In this document: positions 2,218 through 52,051 of the stretch, piece by piece
Numbering within the stretch: position 1 is the stretch's first letter
Layout of the letters: each line of letters starts with the position of its first letter
Assembly (NCBI GenBank): GCA_963805065.1
Contig: CAWDSS010000010.1
Location: 1,112,359 to 1,176,358 of the forward strand
Reading direction: 5' to 3'
Length of the DNA stretch: 64,000 nt
Source: Candidatus Omnitrophota bacterium
GTDB taxonomy: Bacteria > Omnitrophota > Gorgyraeia > Gygaellales > Profunditerraquicolaceae
Position numbers and translations under genes: made by a program
Notes under the pieces: model-generated
What the model was told of the DNA's origin: nothing
The model's database searches: none
What the model saw: only the letters and a program-made list of their open reading frames with translations

Positions 2218-3662
2218 GGATAGTCATGGCAGCATCGGAGGTCGTGCCTTTTGCAAAGACAGGCGGTTTAGCAGACGTGGCCGGGGCTTTGCCTTTGGCG
2301 CTGGAAGAAGAAGGCCAGGAAGTTATAATTGTTATACCAAAGTACAAGGCAATTGATGAAGCTAAGTTCGATATCAAGAGACTTTGCGAAGGTATTTCGT
2401 ATGCTGTGATAGGTAAAAATATAAAGGTTTATTTTATCGAGAACGACTACTATTTTAACCGCGACGGATTATACGGAGATAAAAACGGCGATTATAAAGA
2501 TAACTTAGAAAGATTTTCTTTTTTTTGTAGGAGAACATTAGAGCTGTTAAAAGAAATAAATTTCTCCCGCCCAACTATTACTATGTCAGGCGGGATCCCG
2601 CCCGCTATTAATAGCCTGGCGGGAAAGCCCGATATTATTCACGTGCATGATTGGCAGGCCTCACTAATACCGGTATACTTAAAGTTTAGGTATTCTAACG
2701 ACCCGTTTTATAAAAACATTAAGACGGTGCTTACTATACATAACATAGGTTATCAGGGATTATTTTCCAAAGATGAATTTTCTAAGCTGGGTTTGGATTG
2801 GAGTTTATTCAACATAGAGGGTTTAGAGTTTTATGACAAGATTAACATCTTAAAAGGCGGGATGGAATTCTCGGATATTATTAATACAGTAAGCGAAACT
2901 TATGCCAAAGAGATCCAGACCAAGGAATTCGGCTTTGGCTTGGAGGGTGTGCTGAATAGGCGCAAATCCTCGGTATTCGGAATTTTAAACGGGCTTGATT
3001 ACGCTATCTGGGACCCTAAAACCGATAAGTTCATCGCAAAGAATTATTCAGCCAAGGACATAGAAATTAAATACAAAAATAAAGAAGACCTGCAGAAAAT
3101 CTGCAAGCTTCCTTTAAAAAATGATGTCCCGTTATTCGGAATAGTTTCCAGGCTTGCCGAGCAGAAAGGCTTTGATATACTTGCCGAGGGAATAGAAAAA
3201 ATCTGCAAGATGGGTTTACAGTTGGTAATTTTAGGAACGGGAGACTTAAAATACCATTTACTTCTGGAAGAAATGGTCAAGAAATACCCCAAGGTTATAT
3301 CGTTGCATTTAAAATTTGACGATAGTCTAGCGCATAAGATTTATGCAGGCTCTGATATTTTTCTCATGCCTTCCAAATATGAACCCTGCGGATTGGGGCA
3401 ATTGATATCTTTGAGATACGGCACAATCCCCCTGGTGTTTAAAACCGGAGGCTTGGCTGATACTGTAAATAAAGATAACGGGTTTATATTCGATAAATAT
3501 TCAAAAGACGAATTAATCAAGACCATTAAACTTTCAATCAAGGCATTTGAAAGCAAAAAGAAATGGGCTGAGCTGGTCGTAAAGGCAATGAAATATAATT
3601 TTTCTTGGGAGGCGTCAGCCAAAAAGTATCTGGATTTGTATGCCAAGGCAAAGTCAAAATAG
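2214..3662 (+). CDS. glgA: Glycogen/starch synthase (GT5), with an unusual 20-aa insertion before the HVHDW motif
   Basis: N-terminal FAKTGGLADV, then IIHVHDW and C-terminal PSKYEPCGLGQL. ATGA overlap with the polA stop. Confidence 0.9.
   Translation: MRIVMAASEVVPFAKTGGLADVAGALPLALEEEGQEVIIVIPKYKAIDEAKFDIKRLCEGISYAVIGKNIKVYFIENDYYFNRDGLYGDKNGDYKDNLERFSFFCRRTLELLKEINFSRPTITMSGGIPPAINSLAGKPDIIHVHDWQASLIPVYLKFRYSNDPFYKNIKTVLTIHNIGYQGLFSKDEFSKLGLDWSLFNIEGLEFYDKINILKGGMEFSDIINTVSETYAKEIQTKEFGFGLEGVLNRRKSSVFGILNGLDYAIWDPKTDKFIAKNYSAKDIEIKYKNKEDLQKICKLPLKNDVPLFGIVSRLAEQKGFDILAEGIEKICKMGLQLVILGTGDLKYHLLLEEMVKKYPKVISLHLKFDDSLAHKIYAGSDIFLMPSKYEPCGLGQLISLRYGTIPLVFKTGGLADTVNKDNGFIFDKYSKDELIKTIKLSIKAFESKKKWAELVVKAMKYNFSWEASAKKYLDLYAKAKSK
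2565..2624 (+). repeat. Tandem pair of GC-clamped hairpins (TCCCGCC-N17-GGCGGGA, TCCCGCC-N15-GGCGGGA) inserted in frame in glgA
   Basis: Arms read directly at 2565-2571/2589-2595 and 2596-2602/2618-2624. Total 60 nt = 20 codons (SRPTITMSGGIPPAINSLAG). Confidence 0.75.
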
Positions 3663-15736: not shown

Positions 15737-16756
15737 ATGGAAAATGTACTTTCCTGGCCCATGACAATAATATTATTAATAATCTTAGCATTGGTATCGT
15801 GTTTCTTTTCATTATCGGAGACTTCCATAGTCGGTTTAAGCAGGATCCGCCTTCGCCATATGATTTCACGGGGCGTGAGAGGCGCGCAGAGCATACAGCG
15901 CCTGATTACAAAACTGGACAAGTTTATTGTTGCGATTCTGGTAGGGAATAATTTTGTCAATATTGCAATGTCCGCAATTATAACAGGAATTTTCGTTTAT
16001 CATTTCGGTTATAGATTAGGAATACTTCTTGCTACGCTTATTGCCGCGTTGTTTATAGTCATAATATGCGAGATTACCCCAAAGATTTTAGCAATTAAAA
16101 ATACGGAACGCGCGGCTCTATTGGTCGCTCCGCTGATGGAAACATTTATCAAAATATTTAATCCTGTTATCTCTGTTTTTGAAGCCGCAGGCAGCATTAT
16201 TATTAGATTATTAAGAATTAAACACGCAAAAAGATCTCCCCTGGTTACCGAAGAAGAGCTAAGACTGATGATTGAGCTCGGTAAAGAAGAAGGATTCTTG
16301 AGCATAGAAGAGGCAAAGACACTGCAGCGCATTTTTGAATTTGGAAAGATTAAAGTCAGCGACGTAATGGTACTAAAGGATAAGATGATATCCGTAGACA
16401 TCAATATCACTCCGGGACAGCTCCTGGATATTTTTGTAGAAGAGGGTCATGCGAGACTGCCGGTATATAAGGGCTCGCCCGATAACGTCGTAGGAATTAT
16501 TTATGCCAGGGACTTATTGTACATTTTAAGGGATAAAGGATTATTCTTGCTGCAGGATCTTTTGCATGAGCCTTATTTTGTCCCATCTAACATGCAAGTA
16601 AGCGAACTCTTAAAGAGATTCCAACTGGATAAAATTCAGATCGCTATCGTTATTAATGAACATAAAAAGACAGTAGGCTTGGTTACACTTGAAGACTTAA
16701 TTGAAGAGATTGTGGGCGAGATAGAAGAGACACACCACAAGCATCGGCATAGATAA
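15737..16756 (+). CDS. CNNM/DUF21 transmembrane protein with CBS pair (TlyC/CorC-like), lacking a C-terminal CorC_HlyC domain
   Basis: N-terminal multi-TM region with FSLSETS, then a CBS-like region ending LEDLIEEIVGEIE. The ORF ends at a TAA contributed by the hairpin element. Confidence 0.8.
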   Translation: MENVLSWPMTIILLIILALVSCFFSLSETSIVGLSRIRLRHMISRGVRGAQSIQRLITKLDKFIVAILVGNNFVNIAMSAIITGIFVYHFGYRLGILLATLIAALFIVIICEITPKILAIKNTERAALLVAPLMETFIKIFNPVISVFEAAGSIIIRLLRIKHAKRSPLVTEEELRLMIELGKEEGFLSIEEAKTLQRIFEFGKIKVSDVMVLKDKMISVDINITPGQLLDIFVEEGHARLPVYKGSPDNVVGIIYARDLLYILRDKGLFLLQDLLHEPYFVPSNMQVSELLKRFQLDKIQIAIVINEHKKTVGLVTLEDLIEEIVGEIEETHHKHRHR

Positions 16757-16863
16757 GTGAGGACATAAGTTATGGAGAATAAAATTAAAAATGTATCCGA
16801 CATAACTTATCTGTCCGAACTTACCCGGCACATAAATTATGTGCTGGGTTATGGGCTCATTAA
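16753..16863 (+). repeat. Intergenic modular hairpin element, copy 1 (ATAAGTGAGGACATAAGTTATGG... family)
   Basis: The first ~75 nt are near-identical to 38189- and 39271-. Hairpins are GGACATAAGTTATG/CATAACTTATCTGTCC and CCCGGCACATA/TATGTGCTGGG (16824-16848). Ends GGGCTCATTAA. Confidence 0.85.
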
Positions 16864-34634: not shown

Positions 34635-35102
34635 ATGAAAATCTCGCAAAAAATAATTATAGCCACAGCCACGTTTTTTTATGTAGGGTTTCTGCCTTTG
34701 ATACCGGGTACGTTCGGCAGTATCGCAGGTATAATTTTGTATTTTTTCGTTAAGAATAACATTTATGTTTTTATGGTTTCTTTGGCCTTGGTTATTATTT
34801 TGGGGTTGGTGTTCAGCGGCAGGGCAGAGAGAATATTTCAGAAGAAGGATGCAAGTTTTATAGTCATAGATGAAGTAGCCGGCATGTTATTAAGCCTGAT
34901 GTTCCTCCCTTTCGATATAAAATTGGTGGCCCTTGCTTTTTTAATTTTCCGCGCCCTTGATACACTAAAGCCTTTTCCTGCGGGCGCACTCCAGGAGCTA
35001 AGGGGGAGCCTTGGCATAATGAGTGATGATATAATCGCAGGGTTGTATACTAATATTATTCTTCAGGTGGCTTTGAGGCTGGTTTGTTTTAAGGCTTCGT
35101 AG
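34635..35102 (+). CDS. pgpA: Phosphatidylglycerophosphatase A
   Basis: PgpA family: GTFGS, IVIDEVAGM and DTLKPFP motifs. Confidence 0.88.
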   Translation: MKISQKIIIATATFFYVGFLPLIPGTFGSIAGIILYFFVKNNIYVFMVSLALVIILGLVFSGRAERIFQKKDASFIVIDEVAGMLLSLMFLPFDIKLVALAFLIFRALDTLKPFPAGALQELRGSLGIMSDDIIAGLYTNIILQVALRLVCFKAS

Positions 35103-35635
35103 ACAGGCCCTTTTGGGGTAAGGGTGCTTTTAAACAAAGTAATCTTCGTAACAAGAAATTCCAGATTCTCTATTCCAAAATCATTTATCCTTGGTTTTAA
35201 ATCCCGAACTAATTTTACCATATTCAAGCTTGACTTGGTCCTTCCCAGGGTGATATGGGAGGAAAATGGCCTTTTTTCTTTAGGAATGCCTAATTTTTGA
35301 ATTTTTTCTTCCAGGGATTTTGCAATTGCCTTGCTCTCAGTATCTCCTTTATCTAACCCTACCCAGATTACCCGCGGTGAACTGATTCTGGGAAATGCCC
35401 CTACCGAACAAATGCAGATGTCAAATGGCTTTGTGCTCTCGGCAACACTCTCCATAATTGAAATCACCTTATTCAGTTTATCTTCGTTAATTTCGCCGAG
35501 GAATTTCAAGGTCAAGTGAATGTTTTGCGGCTCAACCCATTTGATATCAGCACCGCTTGCCTTTAGTTTATCCTGCAATTGCGCTAATGAATCTTTGATT
35601 TCTTGAGGTAGCTCTATCGCAATAAATGTTCTCAT
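35063..35635 (-). CDS. thpR: RNA 2',3'-cyclic phosphodiesterase (2H family, LigT/ThpR)
   Basis: Two H-x-T/S-x motifs: HLTLKF and HITLGR. 190 aa. Confidence 0.9.
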   Translation of the reverse strand: MRTFIAIELPQEIKDSLAQLQDKLKASGADIKWVEPQNIHLTLKFLGEINEDKLNKVISIMESVAESTKPFDICICSVGAFPRISSPRVIWVGLDKGDTESKAIAKSLEEKIQKLGIPKEKRPFSSHITLGRTKSSLNMVKLVRDLKPRINDFGIENLEFLVTKITLFKSTLTPKGPVYEALKQTSLKAT

Positions 35636-35649
35636 CGCTTACACTTTTT

Positions 35650-36135
35650 TCTAATCAATCTATCGTTCCTCTCGCTTAAGCTATAATTCGCGGGTCCTGT
35701 CTTGGTGTGTTTTTCGCGAGGACGCTCGTTTTGCCCCGGCGTGGCAAAACTTCGCTCATCTCGGCTTCGTCGCTCTGCCTGACTTCATTTACGAGGGGCA
35801 TCCGTGCCCGCTCCTCGCCTCCATGCCTCGCTCAAAATCACCCCAAGCCACCCGCTAATATACTAGACGCTCGGAGGGTAATTGTAAGTGTTGAATGAAT
35901 ATGGCGGAGTGGATACCTGAGTGACTTTTTGTGGGTGACGAGGCTTGATTTGAGCAGCACATAAGGAAGCCGGAGCGGGCATGGTTTGCCTCGTTAGAAA
36001 AGTATCCAAGAGCGAAGGCTTCCGCTTGCGCGAAGCAATTCCACGCTGGGGAATTGCGAGCGATGCTGCGAAAACAAGCCTCGGCAGGACCCACAAAAAA
36101 TCGACTGCGCGACAAAGACCGACAGATTCATTTAA
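35650..36135 (-). ncRNA. GC-rich two-domain structured element, copy A (candidate large ncRNA; sense strand defined by homology to copy B)
   Basis: Reverse complement aligns block by block with 49925-50447. Helix strands are 36076-36099/35925-35944 (domain 1) and 35838-35854/35689-35708 (domain 2). One 60-nt line is 39/60 GC against a much lower background. Confidence 0.6.
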
Positions 36136-36141
36136 TAAGAA

Positions 36142-36612
36142 TTATTTAATTAAATCTTTTAGCAGCTCCAAAGCTTTAGTGGCTGATTTTTTTCGAATCG
36201 TAGCTCTGTTGCCGGAAAAATGAAATTCTTTGCAGATAGTTTGGTATTTGCTAGCTGTGGCAATAAATACTGTTCCTACGGGTTTTTGTGCAGTTCCTCT
36301 TGTAGGGCCGGCTATGCCGGTAATACCGATTCCATAATCGCTCTTCGCTATTCTTCTTACTGATTGAGCCATGTTTTGAGCTGTTGCTTGGGATACGGCG
36401 CCTTTTAGCGCAATAATGCTTTTGGGTATTTTTAAGACATTTTGCTTGGCTTTATTGCTGTAGGCCACGACTCCCAAAAGCAAATATTTGGAACTGCCTG
36501 GGATCGCAGTCAACGCAGCAGAGAGGAGGCCTCCAGTGCATGACTCTGCAATAGCAATGGTGTGATGATTTTTTATCAGGAGTTTATGTAATTGCATTAC
36601 AATGGGTTGCAT
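36142..36612 (-). CDS. pncC: Nicotinamide-nucleotide amidohydrolase PncC / CinA C-terminal domain protein
   Basis: IAIAESCTGGLLSAAL motif, GIGITGIAGP. 156 aa. Confidence 0.88.
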   Translation of the reverse strand: MQPIVMQLHKLLIKNHHTIAIAESCTGGLLSAALTAIPGSSKYLLLGVVAYSNKAKQNVLKIPKSIIALKGAVSQATAQNMAQSVRRIAKSDYGIGITGIAGPTRGTAQKPVGTVFIATASKYQTICKEFHFSGNRATIRKKSATKALELLKDLIK

Positions 36613-36757: not shown

Positions 36758-36767
36758 TAATTCAATT

Positions 36768-36890
36768 AATCTTCAGGGCAAGGTGAGAATCCTAACCGGC
36801 GGTTTAGCCCGCGAGCCCGATCGAAAGAAAGGGCAGATCTGGTAAAATTCCAGAGCCGATGGTGACAGTCCAGATGAAAGAAGATTAAGA
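36768..36890 (+). ncRNA. FMN riboswitch (RFN element)
   Basis: CAGGGCAAGGTGAGAATCCTAACCGGCGGT...AGCCCGCGAGCC...GATCTGGTAAAATTCCAGAGCCGATGGTGACAGTCCAGATGAAAGAAGA matches the conserved RFN core. Located upstream of ribBA. Confidence 0.93.
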
Positions 36891-36927: not shown

Positions 36928-36977
36928 AATGAAGACACAACTTACGGAATGAAATGACATAAATTGTGCACTTACTT

Positions 36978-38192
36978 ATGTTTAATACAATTTCAGAGAT
37001 ATTGGAAGATTTAAAAAAAGGCAGGATGGTCATTGTGGTTGATGACGAGGACCGCGAAAATGAAGGCGACCTTGTTATGGCTGCCTCTTTTACTAAGGCC
37101 GAAGACATAAATTTCATGGCGAAATTCGGCAGAGGCCTTATTTGTGTCCCCATGGAAGAAGACCGGCTTAGACTATTGGGTTTAGAGCCGATGTTAAAGG
37201 ATAATATTCATCCTGCGAATAAAGAAGATCCTTTTAAAACTGCCTGGATGATTTCAGCTGATGCTGCTAAAGGCATAACCACGGGAATTTCTGCTCATGA
37301 CCGCAGCCGCACTATAGAAGTTTTAATAAATCCGCTCTCCTTAGCCGAAGACCTGATTCGCCCCGGCCATATTTTTCCTTTAAGGGCGCGCCGCGGAGGA
37401 GTTTTGGTACGCGCAGGGCACACTGAGGCGACAATAGATTTGATGCGGCTTGCAGGGCTGTATCCCGCAGGAGTTATCTGCGAAATCATGAATGACGACG
37501 GTTCCATGGCCCGCCTACCGCAGCTTCTGGAATTTTCCCAACGCCATAATTTAAAGATTTGTTCCATTGCCAGCCTCATAGAATACCGTCGGCGCTCAGA
37601 AATTTTGATAGAACGCGTTACGCAAACACGTCTTCCCACTGAATTCGGAGAGTACAAACTCATACTTTATCGGGACCTTACCAATAACAAAATTCATACC
37701 GCGTTGATTTTGGGGGATGCGGATAATAAAGGAATGCTTGTAAGGGTGCACTCTGAATGTTTGACTGGGGATGTCTTCGGGTCTTTGCGCTGTGATTGCG
37801 GCAGGCAGCTTAAGCGCGCTATGGAAATCATTCATAAAGAAAGAAAAGGGGTAATCCTGTATATGAATCAGGAAGGAAGAGGCATTGGTTTGGTTGATAA
37901 AATACGTGCCTACAGCCTACAGGATAAGGGATTGGATACCGTAGAAGCAAATGAAATGTTGGGCCATGCTGCAGACCTTAGGGATTACGGCATAGGCGCA
38001 CAGATATTGGTGGATTTAGGTTTAAAGAATATCAGGCTCCTGACAAATAATCCGCGTAAGATTGTAGGTTTAGAGGGTTATGGGCTTAAAGTCATTGAGC
38101 GCGTTCCCTTAGAGATTGAGCCCAATCCTATAAATTATAATTACCTGAAGACAAAAAAAGAAAAATTAGGGCACGATCTGAATATTGAATAA
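36978..38192 (+). CDS. ribBA: Bifunctional 3,4-dihydroxy-2-butanone-4-phosphate synthase / GTP cyclohydrolase II
   Basis: [12 protein letters not shown] (DHBPS) and [20 protein letters not shown] (GCHII). ATG 36978 preferred over the in-frame GTG 36966. Confidence 0.95.
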
Positions 38193-38367
38193 GTGAGGAC
38201 AATAGTTTTGGAGAATAAAATTAAAAATGTATCCGACATAACTTATATGTCCGAACTTACCCCACACCCAGAAAGAGATAATTTTAAAACTATCTCTGGG
38301 TGTGGGGTTAATTCGCGCAAATAACTTACGTTGCACTTCGTGCTGCCGTAAGTTATGCGCTCATTAA
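38189..38367 (+). repeat. Intergenic modular hairpin element, copy 3 (ribBA-ribH gap)
   Basis: ATAAGTGAGGACAATAGTTTTGGAGAATAAAATTAAAAATGTATCCGACATAACTTATATGTCCGAACTTAC, then a 12-bp hairpin (38260-38271 / 38296-38307), then ATAACTTACG/CGTAAGTTAT (38321-38330 / 38347-38356), then GCGCTCATTAA. Confidence 0.9.
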
Positions 38368-38864: not shown

Positions 38865-39278
38865 ATGCGTAAACGCACAAAAGCCAGGGAATTTGCTTTG
38901 CAGGTTCTTTATCAGATGGATATAACTCATGATGATGTCGGTGTCTCCTTAGGCAGTTTTTGGCAATCGCTGGAAGAAGATTTAGATACAGAGCTTAAGG
39001 ATTTTACTGAGGCGTTGGTTAAAGGGGTAGCCCAGAATTTAAAGACTATTGATGCAAAGATAACTCAATTTGCCGCCAACTGGAAGCTTGAACGTATGGC
39101 TGTAGTAGACAGAAATATCCTGCGCTTAGGCTGTTTTGAACTTTTGTTTAGAGAAGATATCCCGCCGAAAGTATCAATCAATGAAGGTGTTGAGCTTGCC
39201 AAGAAATATTCAGGCCCTGACGCAGGAAAATTCGTCAACGCTATCCTGGATAAGGTTAAGATAGAGAAAAATAAGTGA
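38865..39278 (+). CDS. nusB: Transcription antitermination factor NusB
   Basis: RTKAREFALQVLYQMD N-terminus and ILRLGCFELLF. ribH-nusB adjacency is classical. Confidence 0.93.
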   Translation: MRKRTKAREFALQVLYQMDITHDDVGVSLGSFWQSLEEDLDTELKDFTEALVKGVAQNLKTIDAKITQFAANWKLERMAVVDRNILRLGCFELLFREDIPPKVSINEGVELAKKYSGPDAGKFVNAILDKVKIEKNK

Positions 39279-39446
39279 GGACATAAGTTATGGAGAATAA
39301 AATTAAAAGTGTATCCGACATAACTTATATGTCCGAACTTACCCCACACCCAGCAATAATATTTGAGTTATATTTTTCTGGGTGTGGGGTTAATTCGCCC
39401 AAATAACTTACGTTCACTTTCGTTCCGTAAGTTATGGGCTCATTAA
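39271..39446 (+). repeat. Intergenic modular hairpin element, copy 4 (nusB-PHP gap)
   Basis: Same three modules as copy 3. The 12-bp hairpin is at 39342-39353 / 39378-39389 with a different loop. Ends GGGCTCATTAA, 1 nt before ATG 39448. Its TGA is the nusB stop. Confidence 0.9.
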
Positions 39447-48593: not shown

Positions 48594-48995
48594 ATGTCAA
48601 GACTTGACAGGGTTACCGAGGCGATAAGAAAAGAAGTGAGCATGATTTTACACGATGAATTAAAAGACCCAAGGCTGGGTTTTGTTACCATAACCAAGGT
48701 TACGATGACTGCTGACTTAAGGTCTGCTAAAGTATTCTTTAGCGTGTTAGGCAAAGAAGAGGAACACAAAAAAAGCAAACTGGCGCTTGATTCAGCGCTG
48801 GGGTTTATCCGTAAATTAGTTGCGGAAAGGATAAATTTAAGATTTGCCCCGGAGATTGCGTTTGTAGAAGACAGGTCAGTTGAATACAGCGTAAGAATTG
48901 AAGAAATCCTGAATGAGATAAAAGCAGAAACACAACCACGAAAGGAAAGCACAGGTGGGGTTAAAAAAAGTCGTAGAGTCCATAAAAAGAAATAA
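48594..48995 (+). CDS. rbfA: Ribosome-binding factor A
   Basis: RVTEAIRKEVSMILHDELKDPRLGFVTITKVTMTADLRSAKVFFS is RbfA-like. Confidence 0.92.
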   Translation: MSRLDRVTEAIRKEVSMILHDELKDPRLGFVTITKVTMTADLRSAKVFFSVLGKEEEHKKSKLALDSALGFIRKLVAERINLRFAPEIAFVEDRSVEYSVRIEEILNEIKAETQPRKESTGGVKKSRRVHKKK

Positions 48996-49929
48996 TAGAT
49001 TCTTGCTTACAGTCCATACAAATCCTGAAGGAGACGCCTTGGGTTCAGAGCTCGCTTTCTATTTTCTGCTTAAAAAAATGGGAAAGCAGGCGTTTATTTT
49101 AAATGAGGATGAAGTGCCCTATGGTTATAATTTTTTGCCGGGGGTAAGATACATTAAGAGACCCGGCACTCAAAAACGTTTTAAGAAAATGGATTTCGAT
49201 TGTTTTGTGGTATTGGATTGTTCTGATCCCCAGAGGACAGGCAGTGTCTATGGGGCTAATGCAAAGGGTAAGCTTATCCTGAATATCGATCATCACATCA
49301 GCAACAATAATTTCGCTGACGTCAATTGGGTAGAGCCGAAAAGTTCTTCCACTTCAGAAATGGTTTATAAGCTATTCAAGAAATTAGGGCTAGCTTTGGA
49401 TAAAGATACGGCTACTTGTTTATATGTGGGCATGCTTACAGATACAGGGTCATTCAGGTATTCTAATACCTCAAGTTCCACCCATAAAGCTGTTGCCAAG
49501 TTGCTTAACTTTAAACTGGATGTCCCGCAGATTTATAAAAATATTTACGAGAATATCCCATTTGAGGACATGAAATTATTAAGCAGGATATTGCCCGATA
49601 TGAAACGGGATTCATTAGGTAAAATTATCTTTTTTCAAATAGGAAAAAAGCTTTTAACCAACAGGAAACTTTCTTTTGACCTTACCGAATCTGTACTCAG
49701 TTTCGGCCGCGCCCTGAAAGATGCGCAGGTAACCGTGTTATTTAAAGAGAACTTAGGCGTTAAGGATGAAGTAAGGGTAAATTTCAGGTCGCAGGGCAAA
49801 GTTGATGTAAATAAGATCGCGCAGTTTTTCGGCGGCGGCGGCCATAAAACCGCAAGCGGCGCCACCATCCACGGAAAAATTAGTCAAGTCAGGAAAAAAG
49901 TTTTAGCTAAAATAAAAACAAGTCTTTGA
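48955..49929 (+). CDS. nrnA: DHH/DHHA1 phosphoesterase (NrnA-like oligoribonuclease / pAp phosphatase)
   Basis: HTNPEGDALGS, NIDHHISN (DHH) and GGGGHKTASG (DHHA1). GTG start overlaps the rbfA end. Confidence 0.85.
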   Translation: MGLKKVVESIKRNNRFLLTVHTNPEGDALGSELAFYFLLKKMGKQAFILNEDEVPYGYNFLPGVRYIKRPGTQKRFKKMDFDCFVVLDCSDPQRTGSVYGANAKGKLILNIDHHISNNNFADVNWVEPKSSSTSEMVYKLFKKLGLALDKDTATCLYVGMLTDTGSFRYSNTSSSTHKAVAKLLNFKLDVPQIYKNIYENIPFEDMKLLSRILPDMKRDSLGKIIFFQIGKKLLTNRKLSFDLTESVLSFGRALKDAQVTVLFKENLGVKDEVRVNFRSQGKVDVNKIAQFFGGGGHKTASGATIHGKISQVRKKVLAKIKTSL

Positions 49930-50447
49930 TGAATCTGATATTTTCTTCGTCAAGCGGTTTTTGCGGGTCCTGCCGAGGCACGTTCCTCGCGTCATCGCTC
50001 GCAATTCCCCAGCGTGGAATTGCTTCGCTCAAGCGGAAGCCTTCGCTCTTGGATACTTGTTTAACGAGGCAAACCATGCCCGCTTCGGCTTCCTTATGTG
50101 CCGCTCGTAACATGCCTCGTCACCCGCAAAAAATCCATTTTGATGCTCGAAATTCAGCCAGATTCATTTACAGCTATTCCCGAGCGCCTGCTATATTAGC
50201 GGGTGGCTTGGGGTGCACCTTGCCTTAAAGGATAGGCAAGTGCGTCCTTTTGGACTGATTTTGAGCGAGGCATGGAGGCGAGGAGCGGGCACGGATGCCC
50301 CTCGTAAATGAAGCCTGGCAGAGCGACGAAGCCGAGATGAGCGAAGTTTTGCCTCGCAGGGGCAAAACGAGCGTCCTCGCGAGAAACACCCCAAGACAGG
50401 ACCCGCGTAATGTAGAAAGCGAGAAAACCGGTAGGTTCATTAGCAAG
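49925..50447 (+). ncRNA. GC-rich two-domain structured element, copy B (candidate large ncRNA)
   Basis: Domain 1 is closed by 49950-49972 / 50105-50125. Domain 2 is closed by 50189-50205 / 50387-50406. Internal hairpins lie at 49993-50015, 50206-50232 and 50346-50368. Fills the nrnA-ribF gap exactly. Confidence 0.6.
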
Positions 50448-50453
50448 GAAATT

Positions 50454-51347
50454 ATGAAAATTATTCGAGGCATTAGCCAGATCAGAAAATTTAAGAACTC
50501 TGTAATTGCGCTGGGCGTATTTGACGGCGTGCATGTAGGTCATAGGATCATTCTAAAGGCTGCCGTAGCGAAAGCCCGCAGCATAAAAGGTACCAGCGTA
50601 GTCTTGACTTTTTGGCCTCACCCGCAAAAAGAAGAAAGCCTCTATTCATTGGAGCACCGCCTAAGATTAATAGAAGAAATAGGCGTAGATATTTGCATAG
50701 TCGTGAAATTCACTCCTAAGTTCGCCAGGATTACCGCAGATAATTTTATAAAGAATATTTTAGTCAAGAAACTTTCCTGCAGGTATATTTATGTTGGCAG
50801 CAATTTTAGTTTCGGAAAAGACGCCAGAGGAAATTACCAAACACTGACAAGGTTCTCCCGTAAATATAATTTTAAATTAAGGGTTTTCTATGTGGTTAAA
50901 CTTAATAATAAACCCATAAGCAGCACCTATATCAGGAAATTAGTGAAGGCAGGCAGGCTAGAAGAAGCAGGAACGCTCCTTACGCGTCCGGTAAGTATCC
51001 TGGGCACAGTCGTAAAAGGTAATGTCCTGGGCCGTTCGTTAGGTTTCCCTACGGCCAACATTAACCCTCATCATGAAGTAATTCCTCCCAGCGGTGTGTA
51101 TGCAGTGCGCGCAATCCTTGAGAATAAAGAATTTAAAGGCATCTGTTATATCGGTACCAGGCCGACCTTAAAAGGCAAAAGAGCCTTACGCATAGAAGTG
51201 CACATGTTTAATTTCCAAAAAAATATTTATAGCAGATATCTAGAGATTCAGTTTATAAAAAAGATAAGGGATGAAAGGAAATTTGATTCTCTCCTATCAT
51301 TAGCAAAACAAATCAGAAAAGACATAATTTCCGCAAAAAAACTGTAA
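50454..51347 (+). CDS. ribF: Bifunctional riboflavin kinase / FMN adenylyltransferase
   Basis: GVFDGVHVGH (FAD synthetase) and GFPTANI (riboflavin kinase). ATG 50454 follows AAGGAA. The ORF-track start at 50295 lies inside the GC-rich element. Confidence 0.92.
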   Translation: MKIIRGISQIRKFKNSVIALGVFDGVHVGHRIILKAAVAKARSIKGTSVVLTFWPHPQKEESLYSLEHRLRLIEEIGVDICIVVKFTPKFARITADNFIKNILVKKLSCRYIYVGSNFSFGKDARGNYQTLTRFSRKYNFKLRVFYVVKLNNKPISSTYIRKLVKAGRLEEAGTLLTRPVSILGTVVKGNVLGRSLGFPTANINPHHEVIPPSGVYAVRAILENKEFKGICYIGTRPTLKGKRALRIEVHMFNFQKNIYSRYLEIQFIKKIRDERKFDSLLSLAKQIRKDIISAKKL

Positions 51348-51438
51348 TTCCTCCCCTCGTCATACCACAATATATGCCCATTCAATAGCAATAAGTCCAC
51401 TACTCATTGTATTATATTAAGTTAGGTAAATATTTTTC

Positions 51439-51467
51439 TTGACAAATAAGAAGAATTTTCATATACT
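51439..51467 (+). promoter_or_regulatory. Putative dcw-cluster promoter (TTGACA-17-TATACT)
   Basis: TTGACA at 51439-51444, 17-nt spacer, TATACT at 51462-51467. Confidence 0.6.
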
Positions 51468-51476
51468 TTGGGTTAC

Positions 51477-51503
51477 AAAGTGGTAATAAGTGGAGTAAAG
51501 TGG
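51477..51503 (+). promoter_or_regulatory. Three direct (A)AAGTGG repeats at exact 10-nt phasing: putative MraZ operator
   Basis: AAAGTGG at 51477-51483, TAAGTGG at 51487-51493, AAAGTGG at 51497-51503. Immediately downstream of the -10 and upstream of mraZ. Confidence 0.65.
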
Positions 51504-51511
51504 CTGAAGTC

Positions 51512-51602
51512 ACAACTTATGGAGCGTAAGCGAACATAAGTTGTATTCAAAATAATTTAAGGAGGATTGACTTATGTCGTCCTTGTGGACTCCATAAGTC
51601 AA
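51512..51602 (+). repeat. Two hairpins of the CTTATG/CATAAG family in the mraZ leader
   Basis: ACAACTTATG (51512-51521) / CATAAGTTGT (51535-51544), with a GGAGCGTAAGCGAA loop related to copy 2. Also TTGACTTATG (51567-51576) / CATAAGTCAA (51593-51602). Confidence 0.75.
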
Positions 51603-51613
51603 GTGCTCAACAA

Positions 51614-52051
51614 ATGTTTTATGGCGAATATCTGCATTCAATAGACCGCAAAGGCCGCCTTATATTGCCTGCCAAATTTCGTGAAGTTGCCAAAGGCAAT
51701 TTTATAGAAAAATTTTTTGTTACCCGCGGTTTGGACAAATGTCTGTTTATGTTTGCGGAAGAGGAATGGCGCGCACAGGAAGCAAAATTTAAGTCCATAA
51801 CTTTTACCAAACAACAGGCACGCACGTTTAACCGGCTTTATTTTTCCGGAGCAGTGGAAGTACTGCCGGATAAGCAGGGTAGGATCCTACTTCCACAGTA
51901 TTTAAAGGATTTTGCCGAGATTAAAAAAGATGTGATGATTGTGGGAGTTTCAAACCGTATAGAAATCTGGGCAAAGAATAAATGGGAAGAATTTTACGGA
52001 ACCTCCCGGCAATCTTTTGAAGAGATAGCTGAAAAGTTAATGGATGTATAA
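51614..52051 (+). CDS. mraZ: Transcriptional regulator MraZ
   Basis: Duplicated SpoVT/AbrB-like halves with DRKGRLILP and DKQGRILLP. Confidence 0.95.
   Translation: MFYGEYLHSIDRKGRLILPAKFREVAKGNFIEKFFVTRGLDKCLFMFAEEEWRAQEAKFKSITFTKQQARTFNRLYFSGAVEVLPDKQGRILLPQYLKDFAEIKKDVMIVGVSNRIEIWAKNKWEEFYGTSRQSFEEIAEKLMDV

Follow-up and report, generated by a model that had tools for sequence, protein, structure and literature searches.

Introduction

REPINs, which occur together with RAYT transposases, are inverted pairs of folded repeats (REP sequences) separated by a short spacer, and single REP sequences are apparently decayed remnants of such pairs (PMC3116915, PMC3337134). The bacterial MITEs include Correia, ERIC, bcr1 and MITEAba12, and composite units bounded by MITEs have also been described (reviewed in PMC10969869).

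Here we analyse a 486-base element at positions 35650-36135 of a 64-kb stretch of DNA (the window) from Candidatus Omnitrophota. Omnitrophota are a widespread, mostly uncultured phylum, and these repeats are apparently undescribed in the literature; full-text searches found nothing on Omnitrophota repeats or RNAs. The element resembles a REPIN in being an intergenic, non-coding, non-autonomous inverted repeat pair with many copies and no obvious target duplication, and nine of ten close unit pairs in its family stand head to head. It differs from a REPIN mainly in its unit. A REP is an imperfectly palindromic hairpin of 20-40 nt tagged with GTAG or CGTC, whereas the unit measures ~185 nt, has a three-way junction and four helices, and ends in TTAGCG, TTTGCG or TTAACG with neither tag. 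Some unit pairs carry cargo genes, and no RAYT gene was found flanked by units as its own repeats, classical GTAGGG REP/RAYT systems being separate in some of the same genomes. The likeness to MITEs comprises the short length (<~600 bp), absence of coding capacity, terminal inverted repeats, intergenic position, multiple copies, presence or absence between relatives, internal-deletion derivatives and pairs bracketing other genes. In contrast to MITEs, each inverted end is ~200 nt long with its own covarying structure and a strand-specific mismatch pattern, and neither a target-site duplication nor a parent insertion sequence was found. The element thus works most like a REPIN or a MITE yet fails the defining tests for both, since no short GTAG-tagged REP, cognate RAYT, target duplication or parent insertion sequence could be identified.

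More distant parallels exist. The attC sites of integrons are recognised by structure as a folded single strand and adjoin small accessory genes, many of unassigned function; they are simple hairpins of 57-141 nt, arranged in direct orientation in arrays next to intI. The units may be compared with them by analogy, as they also stand beside small accessory genes and may be recognised as a folded strand, but they are inverted and dispersed among housekeeping genes with no integrase nearby. The inverted terminal repeats of AAV, which are viral, eukaryotic and 145 nt long, are GC-rich and form a T- or Y-shaped three-way junction with repeated GAGC motifs bound by a HUH protein. GC-rich terminal inverted repeats, a three-way junction and repeated GAGC motifs offer a possible analogy here too; however, the present elements are chromosomal, have no sequence homology with AAV, and no Rep-like gene was found. 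The large non-coding RNAs and transposon RNAs of Rfam (OLE, ROOL, GOLLD, raiA, HEARO and the IS605-orfB RNAs) share with the unit their size range, a covarying multi-helix fold and conserved junction nucleotides. In contrast, the units match none of the 4227 Rfam 15 models, no TnpB, IscB or reverse transcriptase gene lies alongside, and there is neither orientation bias nor any transcription signal.

Materials and methods

A search pattern was derived from the positions conserved in all four arms of the two copies of the element and run on a species-representative genome collection. The covariance model, built from 50 units, has 181 positions, 50 pairs and four helices, and its search of the first 100 sources gave 126 units. 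For the pncC-thpR junction, relatives with ThpR proteins 66-69 % identical were compared, in which the synteny is kept (ribBA, CinA, ThpR, PgpA onward). Loci are referred to by L numbers.

Results

The two copies and their host genes

A sequence-only reading had matched the reverse complement of 35650-36135 (copy A) to a second element in the window. The match was confirmed by blastn at 49925-50449 (E 6.6e-124, 78 % identity over 499 columns including gaps), and an alignment of the reverse complement of 35640-36145 with 49915-50460 gave 87 % column identity. No third copy of the composite element was found in the 64-kb window with blastn, and the covariance model detected exactly four units there, two per copy. 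The composite elements are 486-521 bp long, and the GC content of the element region is 0.51-0.55, compared with a background of ~0.40.

The flanking genes are those named in the earlier reading, as verified with Pfam. Copy A lies on the downstream side of pncC (CinA domain; 36145-36612, minus strand; PF02464, E 6e-57) and upstream of thpR (LigT-like phosphoesterase; 35066-35635, minus strand; PF02834, E 2e-35), and spans from 7 nt past the pncC stop to 14 nt ahead of the thpR ATG. Copy B (49929-50449) lies between an nrnA-like gene (DHH/DHHA1; 48955-49926, plus strand) upstream and ribF (50454-51344, plus strand) downstream, and spans from the last base of the nrnA stop codon to 4 nt ahead of the ribF ATG. 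That the element fills the whole intergenic gap, as had been proposed, is therefore true almost completely at both copies.

Two further features were noted in these regions. An FMN riboswitch (36765-36889, plus strand, 115 bits) is located upstream of ribBA (36966-38189), divergent from pncC, and this arrangement is also kept in L110-L113. Downstream of ribF, the intergenic stretch 51345-51613 is 74-82 % conserved in L005, L095 and L013; it matches no Rfam family and possibly represents a leader or a small RNA for the next gene (51614-52048).

Anatomy of the inverted pair

The 486-base element consists of one ~185-nt unit in two inverted, head-to-head copies, alpha and beta. Their 5' ends face each other across a variable spacer of ~60 nt and the 3' ends form the outer edges, so that the units point outward and each DNA strand of a pair carries one unit in the folded, G-rich sense. 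Neither composite as a whole was assigned a strand. The alpha arm adjoins the upstream gene in both copies.

In copy A the alpha unit (35924-36103) has its G-rich folded sense on the plus strand, antisense to pncC and thpR, and matches the full model, positions 1-181 (cmsearch 157.2 bits, E 6e-42). The beta unit (35681-35862; 157.0 bits, E 7e-42) is on the minus strand, its G-rich sense being that of the host genes, and ends 45 nt ahead of the thpR start. The central spacer or linker (35863-35923, no strand), the most variable part of the element, separates the 5' ends of the two units as read in G-sense. In the four-arm alignment, the outer extension on the pncC side (36104-36135, minus strand; TAAATGAATCTGTCGGTCTTTGTCGC...) is the inverted counterpart of that on the thpR side (35650-35680, minus strand; ...GCGAGAGGAACGATAGATTGATTAG), and the motif GCGAGAGGAACGATAGATTGATTAG also terminates the element at the orthologous site in L112. 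The alpha unit of copy B (49954-50134) has its G-rich sense on the minus strand (155 bits, E 2.5e-41), and its beta unit (50192-50415) on the plus strand (cmsearch 50233-50415, 118.8 bits; nhmmer 50192-50413). The hairpin insert of ~40 nt reported in copy B proved to be real: it is 42 nt long, has two hairpins, lies within the beta unit at 50203-50244, and occurs at the same position in one unit of another genome (L060).

Within a copy, the alpha and beta arms share ~66 % column identity, or ~73 % over aligned positions (5' halves compared with the reverse complement of the 3' halves). Their homology reaches from the outer tips (TAATGAATCT...AGATTSATTA) to the inner ends (...CACCCGC), and flanking A/T bases extend the inverted repeat at the element edges. 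Between the copies, identity is 90 % in the alpha arm and 95 % in the beta arm, ~77 % in the outer extensions of ~30 nt, and 70 % with indels in the central spacer, in agreement with the differing linker noted previously. It follows that the composite was duplicated as a whole, and that the arms are more constrained than the centre. Open reading frames inside the element are not kept between the copies, as indels of 1, 3, 8 and 42 nt break the frames.

The whole element folds to -190 and -192 kcal/mol on the two strands of copy A and to -218 and -220 kcal/mol on those of copy B (z from -6.3 to -7.2), the equal stability of the strands being due to its quasi-palindromic nature. Each arm, however, pairs with itself. 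The local hairpin is formed by GCAATTCC-loop-GGAATTGC in alpha and by GTTTTGCC-loop-GGCAAAAC in beta, and this internal pairing is kept despite the differing sequence, which indicates a self-contained folded unit and not a long arm-to-arm duplex.

Fold of the unit

On the G-rich strand, P1 is a long closing stem with a conserved tandem GA/GA loop, which leads to a three-way junction. One junction arm is the hairpin P2, whose loop is CCNCGCNGGGG and which has GAGCGAAG and CGAGCG on its flanks. P3, the second arm, carries the internal loop GAGCGGGCAYGGUU/AGAGCGA and the hairpin P4, which is of very variable length. Four near-invariant GAGCG motifs are located at the feet of P2 and P4.

A fold shared beyond shuffled controls had been asked of the two copies, and it was found both in the z-scores of the whole element and in the covariation of the unit. 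Among the 126 units, 85.6 % of the paired cells were standard pairs, compared with 61.6 % in column shuffles and 33-46 % with slid partners. The covariation score was 0.514 (control 0.147), a value reached in none of 500 shuffles. Changes on both sides were seen in 48 of the 50 pairs in an alignment that was fitted to the model and so favours the structure; in a plain MAFFT alignment, double changes were seen in 18 of 22 pairs proposed by RNAalifold. The P2 stem was Watson-Crick in 433 of 440 cells, with all four pair types used.

Mismatches in the robust helices, as read on the G-rich strand, comprised 150 G·A versus 12 C·U and 73 G·U versus 48 A·C. Several of the G·A pairs are position-specific, and one position switches between G·A and A·G. 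The mismatch types show that the maintained fold is that of the G-rich strand. This strand was also the more stable by folding energy in all 101 single units considered; a strand call on energy was nevertheless discounted as partly compositional, the whole element folding equally on both strands. GNRA or UNCG tetraloops were seen at only 2 of 111 P4 tips, either strand considered. Pairing of the GGCAYGG bulge with the P2 loop as a pseudoknot was considered and dropped, as on inspection the variable positions showed no covariation. We lean towards single-stranded DNA rather than RNA as the folded form of the unit, a distinction that computation cannot make. The lean away from an independent RNA gene comes from the lack of a conserved promoter or terminator, the lack of orientation bias and the near absence of GNRA and UNCG loops.

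In five loci from high-GC genomes (L017, L068, L079, L082 and L088; GC 0.70-0.79) the model matches the core only, at positions ~36-141, without P1. These matches cover P2, P3/P4 and the GAGCG motifs, and the full unit may be younger than the core or less widely distributed. In L015, L020, L051, L069 and L089 the outermost part of P1 is replaced by the perfect palindrome CCTGCCTGCCGGCAGGCAGG, which looks like another short repeat inserted at the unit end.

Distribution of the family

The search pattern matched more than 109 stretches, nearly all in Candidatus Omnitrophota MAGs and a few in genomes labelled Planctomycetes or Margulisiibacteriota. Among the first 80 loci, the unit was present in at least 52 different species-representative Omnitrophota MAGs, and a second pattern matched more than 120 metagenome contigs. 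Most loci contain one full unit, not a pair, and in other MAGs several units may be present within an 8-kb locus. A plasmid, phage or viral origin was rejected, as no units were found in the viral contigs of IMG/VR and no similarity in plasmid and phage records. Identity with a known RNA family was likewise ruled out by the Rfam searches: no family matched the element at gathering thresholds (4227 Rfam 15 models), at which only the FMN riboswitch and one tRNA were detected over the window, and searches at E values up to 10 over the element and L112 gave only weak chance matches of at most 20 bits.

Filled and empty junctions

The pncC-thpR junction is differently occupied in the relatives. It is empty in L111 (a gap of 1 nt) and L110 (~22 nt), whereas the 92-nt gap of L113 holds an internally deleted mini-unit of which only P1 is left. 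In L112 the gap is 448 nt and contains an alpha-type unit in the place and orientation of that in the window, followed by a different repeat, module 2, instead of beta. As the junction is empty in relatives, the element is not part of how the pncC-thpR operon works. At 66-69 % ThpR identity, the pattern of presence and absence could instead have arisen by deletion or by recombination between repeats, to judge from the sequences compared. A search for direct repeats suggestive of a target-site duplication, at both copies and at the junctions with and without the element, identified none, and multi-copy alignments and filled versus empty sites did not resolve exact ends.

Units of the same subfamily were found in differing gene contexts in different species. 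Multi-copy alignments showed mosaics of full units with mini-units and with 5' or 3' fragments, nested side by side, and internal-deletion derivatives keep the termini. No neighbouring protein was recurrent: an all-against-all blastp of 578 neighbouring ORFs gave only housekeeping synteny and spurious ORFs within units.

Module 2 recurs beside units elsewhere, for example upstream of ribF in L095, a site orthologous to that of copy B. It belongs to a second structured repeat family, a closed hairpin of ~165 nt with the motifs GAAAATTTTCGGC...GCAGCAGACGGCGAAAATTTTC and no Rfam match, which folds to -72 kcal/mol (z = -5) on either strand and often stands in for the second unit beside a full one. 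It was located at L112:2262-2492, L095:1445-1665, L107:2926-3073, L025 from ~3715, L002:1503-1692 and L085:126-284. A third repeat, of ~75 nt (TAAGTGAGGACATAAGTTATGGAGAATAAAATTAAAAATGTATCCGACATAACTTAT.TGTCCGAACTTACCCC), is present in the window at 16754-16826, 38190-38262 and 39276-39348, in each case just after a gene, and also at L035:2307-2371; at two of the three window copies a strong CCCCACACCCAG...CTGGGTGTGGGG hairpin comes next.

Paired units, cargo and the search for the enzyme

Adjacent units less than 400 nt apart were divergent in nine of ten cases (ten of ten under a looser filter), and at distances of 400-3500 nt the pairs were divergent in G-sense in 14 of 23 cases (p = 2.8e-4). 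The distant divergent pairs enclose one or two small, mutually unrelated accessory proteins, mostly without a Pfam match. Those with a Pfam or motif assignment include ORF6N, AbiGi, DUF5677, SIR2_2 and a pilin-like protein. Two further cargo ORFs, L109:2633-3229 (minus strand) and L093:385-1101 (plus strand), have no Pfam match and contain Rx4H motifs (RNKVAH and RHALAH), which suggest that they may encode HEPN-type toxins. Together with AbiGi and SIR2_2, these motif-based candidates hint that the element may carry defence genes. The 486-nt element of the window appears to be an inverted-repeat element with a variable centre and, in this form, no cargo, which explains why the linker is its least conserved part.

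No transposase or recombinase tied to the units was found, and no parent autonomous element sharing their ends was present among the 241 loci (~1.4 Mb) around units. In L154 the cargo gene is a RayT-like Y1 transposase (PF01797, 28.9 bits; NF047646, 56 bits, below the cut-off of 80), and RayT homologues are common in Omnitrophota. The L154 gene and six homologues are flanked by 30-nt GTAGGG...CCCTAC REP hairpins; the covariance model found no units beside the six homologues, and the window contains neither a RAYT gene nor GTAGGG REPs. RAYT was therefore rejected as the enzyme that moves the units, since the L154 gene and its homologues have their classical GTAGGG REPs and the homologues are without units. 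Classical REP/RAYT systems were also observed in their own right in Omnitrophota and neighbouring candidate phyla (L154:1089-1304 and 2955-3225; Y1_Tnp flanks of L234-L241), and this GTAGGG(N)CCCTAC system is separate from the 185-nt unit family.

Orientation and transcription signals

The sequence-only reading had proposed that the element acts at the RNA level, because the same strand was in the sense of the flanking genes in both operons, and had named random orientation of further copies as the refuting outcome. The common orientation is literally true, the alpha arm being beside the upstream gene in both copies; however, the element is a quasi-palindrome, and with n = 2 the agreement has a chance probability of 0.5. 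The argument from strand-consistent placement fails, as a unit in the folded sense is present on both DNA strands. The survey of 123 units from related genomes gave the outcome named beforehand: relative to co-directional neighbour genes, 47 units were in opposite and 35 in the same orientation (p = 0.22). What stands of the proposal is that the conserved fold, maintained on one strand, makes action as a single-stranded nucleic acid plausible.

The gene downstream of a unit was in the same sense in 47 cases and in the opposite sense in 57, and with this inconsistency a cis-regulatory RNA of the leader or riboswitch type is not indicated. There was no information content in the 70 nt upstream or the 60 nt downstream of 108 units, and an independent ncRNA gene is not indicated, as no promoter and terminator of its own was found at conserved distances in these 108 units. 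Scans with promoter and terminator consensus sequences found none at units or in the copy A spacer; the consensus used was that of sigma-70, from which Omnitrophota promoters may differ. As no internal promoter or terminator was detected, read-through transcription probably includes the element.

Discussion

We consider it probable (roughly 60 %) that the element is a cargo-less, non-autonomous, non-coding mobile element spread over Omnitrophota, similar to REPINs or MITEs and with unusually large structured ends. The folded unit would serve in cis as the recognition module for an enzyme encoded elsewhere, and this enzyme would cut and join the element ends. The centre contains either a spacer of ~60 nt, as in the window, or a small insert of one or two accessory genes. 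Where it now lies, the element is presumably read through with pncC and thpR, and in such a transcript the two arms could pair to an imperfect duplex of ~190 bp, a consequence rather than a demonstrated function.

Near-invariant junction motifs throughout a phylum are unusual for a transposase site and would fit a conserved host partner or a functional RNA. The unit could be a functional structured RNA that has multiplied in these genomes. It might then act in processing or stability, regulate in cis or mature independently as an ncRNA, and could be a ribozyme or a scaffold that binds proteins. The multi-helix fold, strong covariation and junction motifs fit such an RNA, as do the position-specific G·A pairs and the tandem GA loop, which are typical of RNA motifs, the excess of G·U over A·C mismatches on the G-rich strand (73 versus 48), and a core conserved phylum-wide, including the core-only matches in high-GC genomes. 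We nevertheless regard it as unlikely, as orientation to neighbour genes is unbiased (47 versus 35), there is no conserved promoter or terminator, GNRA and UNCG loops are near-absent from the variable hairpin (2/111), relatives have the pncC-thpR site empty, copies with truncations or internal deletions are frequent, and no family of Rfam is matched even when E values up to 10 are allowed. It also seems improbable that the unit represents a functional folded nucleic acid of a new class, for example an RNA that processes itself, recruits proteins or serves as a guide or scaffold, and that it forms both ends of an undescribed cargo-carrying mobile family. If that were true, the four GAGCG junction motifs would be its active or recognition core, and the accessory, defence-like genes between unit pairs would be moved by the system.

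The inverted pairs with decayed single units also recall a giant REPIN, in which a RAYT-type (HUH, Y1) transposase would act on folded single-stranded DNA to move two paired REP-like units. This would be consistent with the single-strand-specific fold, the lack of a detectable target duplication, and the P1 ends (TTAGCGGG...CCCGCTAA), which resemble a REP stem bearing a large insert; in addition, two divergent units in L154 enclose a RayT-like gene, and RayT homologues are common in the phylum. It is quite improbable all the same, since the L154 RAYT and its six homologues are flanked by ordinary 30-nt GTAGGG...CCCTAC REPs and the homologues lack units, the window has neither RAYT nor GTAGGG REPs, and the unit is ~5 times the size of any described REP. 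Use by the host at the transcript level, in which the ~190-bp arm duplex would be an RNase III site, a stabiliser or an insulator uncoupling pncC from thpR and nrnA from ribF, appears very improbable. The full element is indeed very stable (-190 to -220 kcal/mol, z = -6.3 to -7.2, for both strands) and occupies whole intergenic gaps between co-directional genes, the pairs being translationally coupled in relatives (the 1-nt gap of L111), and with no internal promoter or terminator detected, expression of thpR and ribF needs read-through. However, relatives do without the element at this junction, the family consists mostly of single units, in which the long duplex is impossible, and covariation keeps the local fold of the unit and not arm-to-arm pairing, the P2 stems differing between arms and each being self-complementary.

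With the mobile element as the preferred reading, a covariation signal like that of a riboswitch or ribozyme is found in a repeat that nevertheless behaves selfishly, and the range of REP- and MITE-type elements would be widened from simple hairpins to a 185-nt multi-helix module. The unit family provides a handle for finding the enzyme and for deciding whether single-stranded DNA or RNA is the recognised form. The unit pairs around defence-like genes point to a simple route of gene shuttling in small genomes.

On the practical side, units can be used as strain markers, and masking them in annotation avoids spurious ORF calls. Such ORFs, of 63-115 amino acids, are present within the elements at 35707-35898 (plus strand), 35855-36115 (minus), 35981-36223 (plus), 49926-50225 (plus) and 50196-50543 (minus). 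They arise from the GC-rich repeat, and the clustering of homologous 'proteins' over nine loci is due solely to their position within units; automated gene calling will probably list them as hypothetical proteins.
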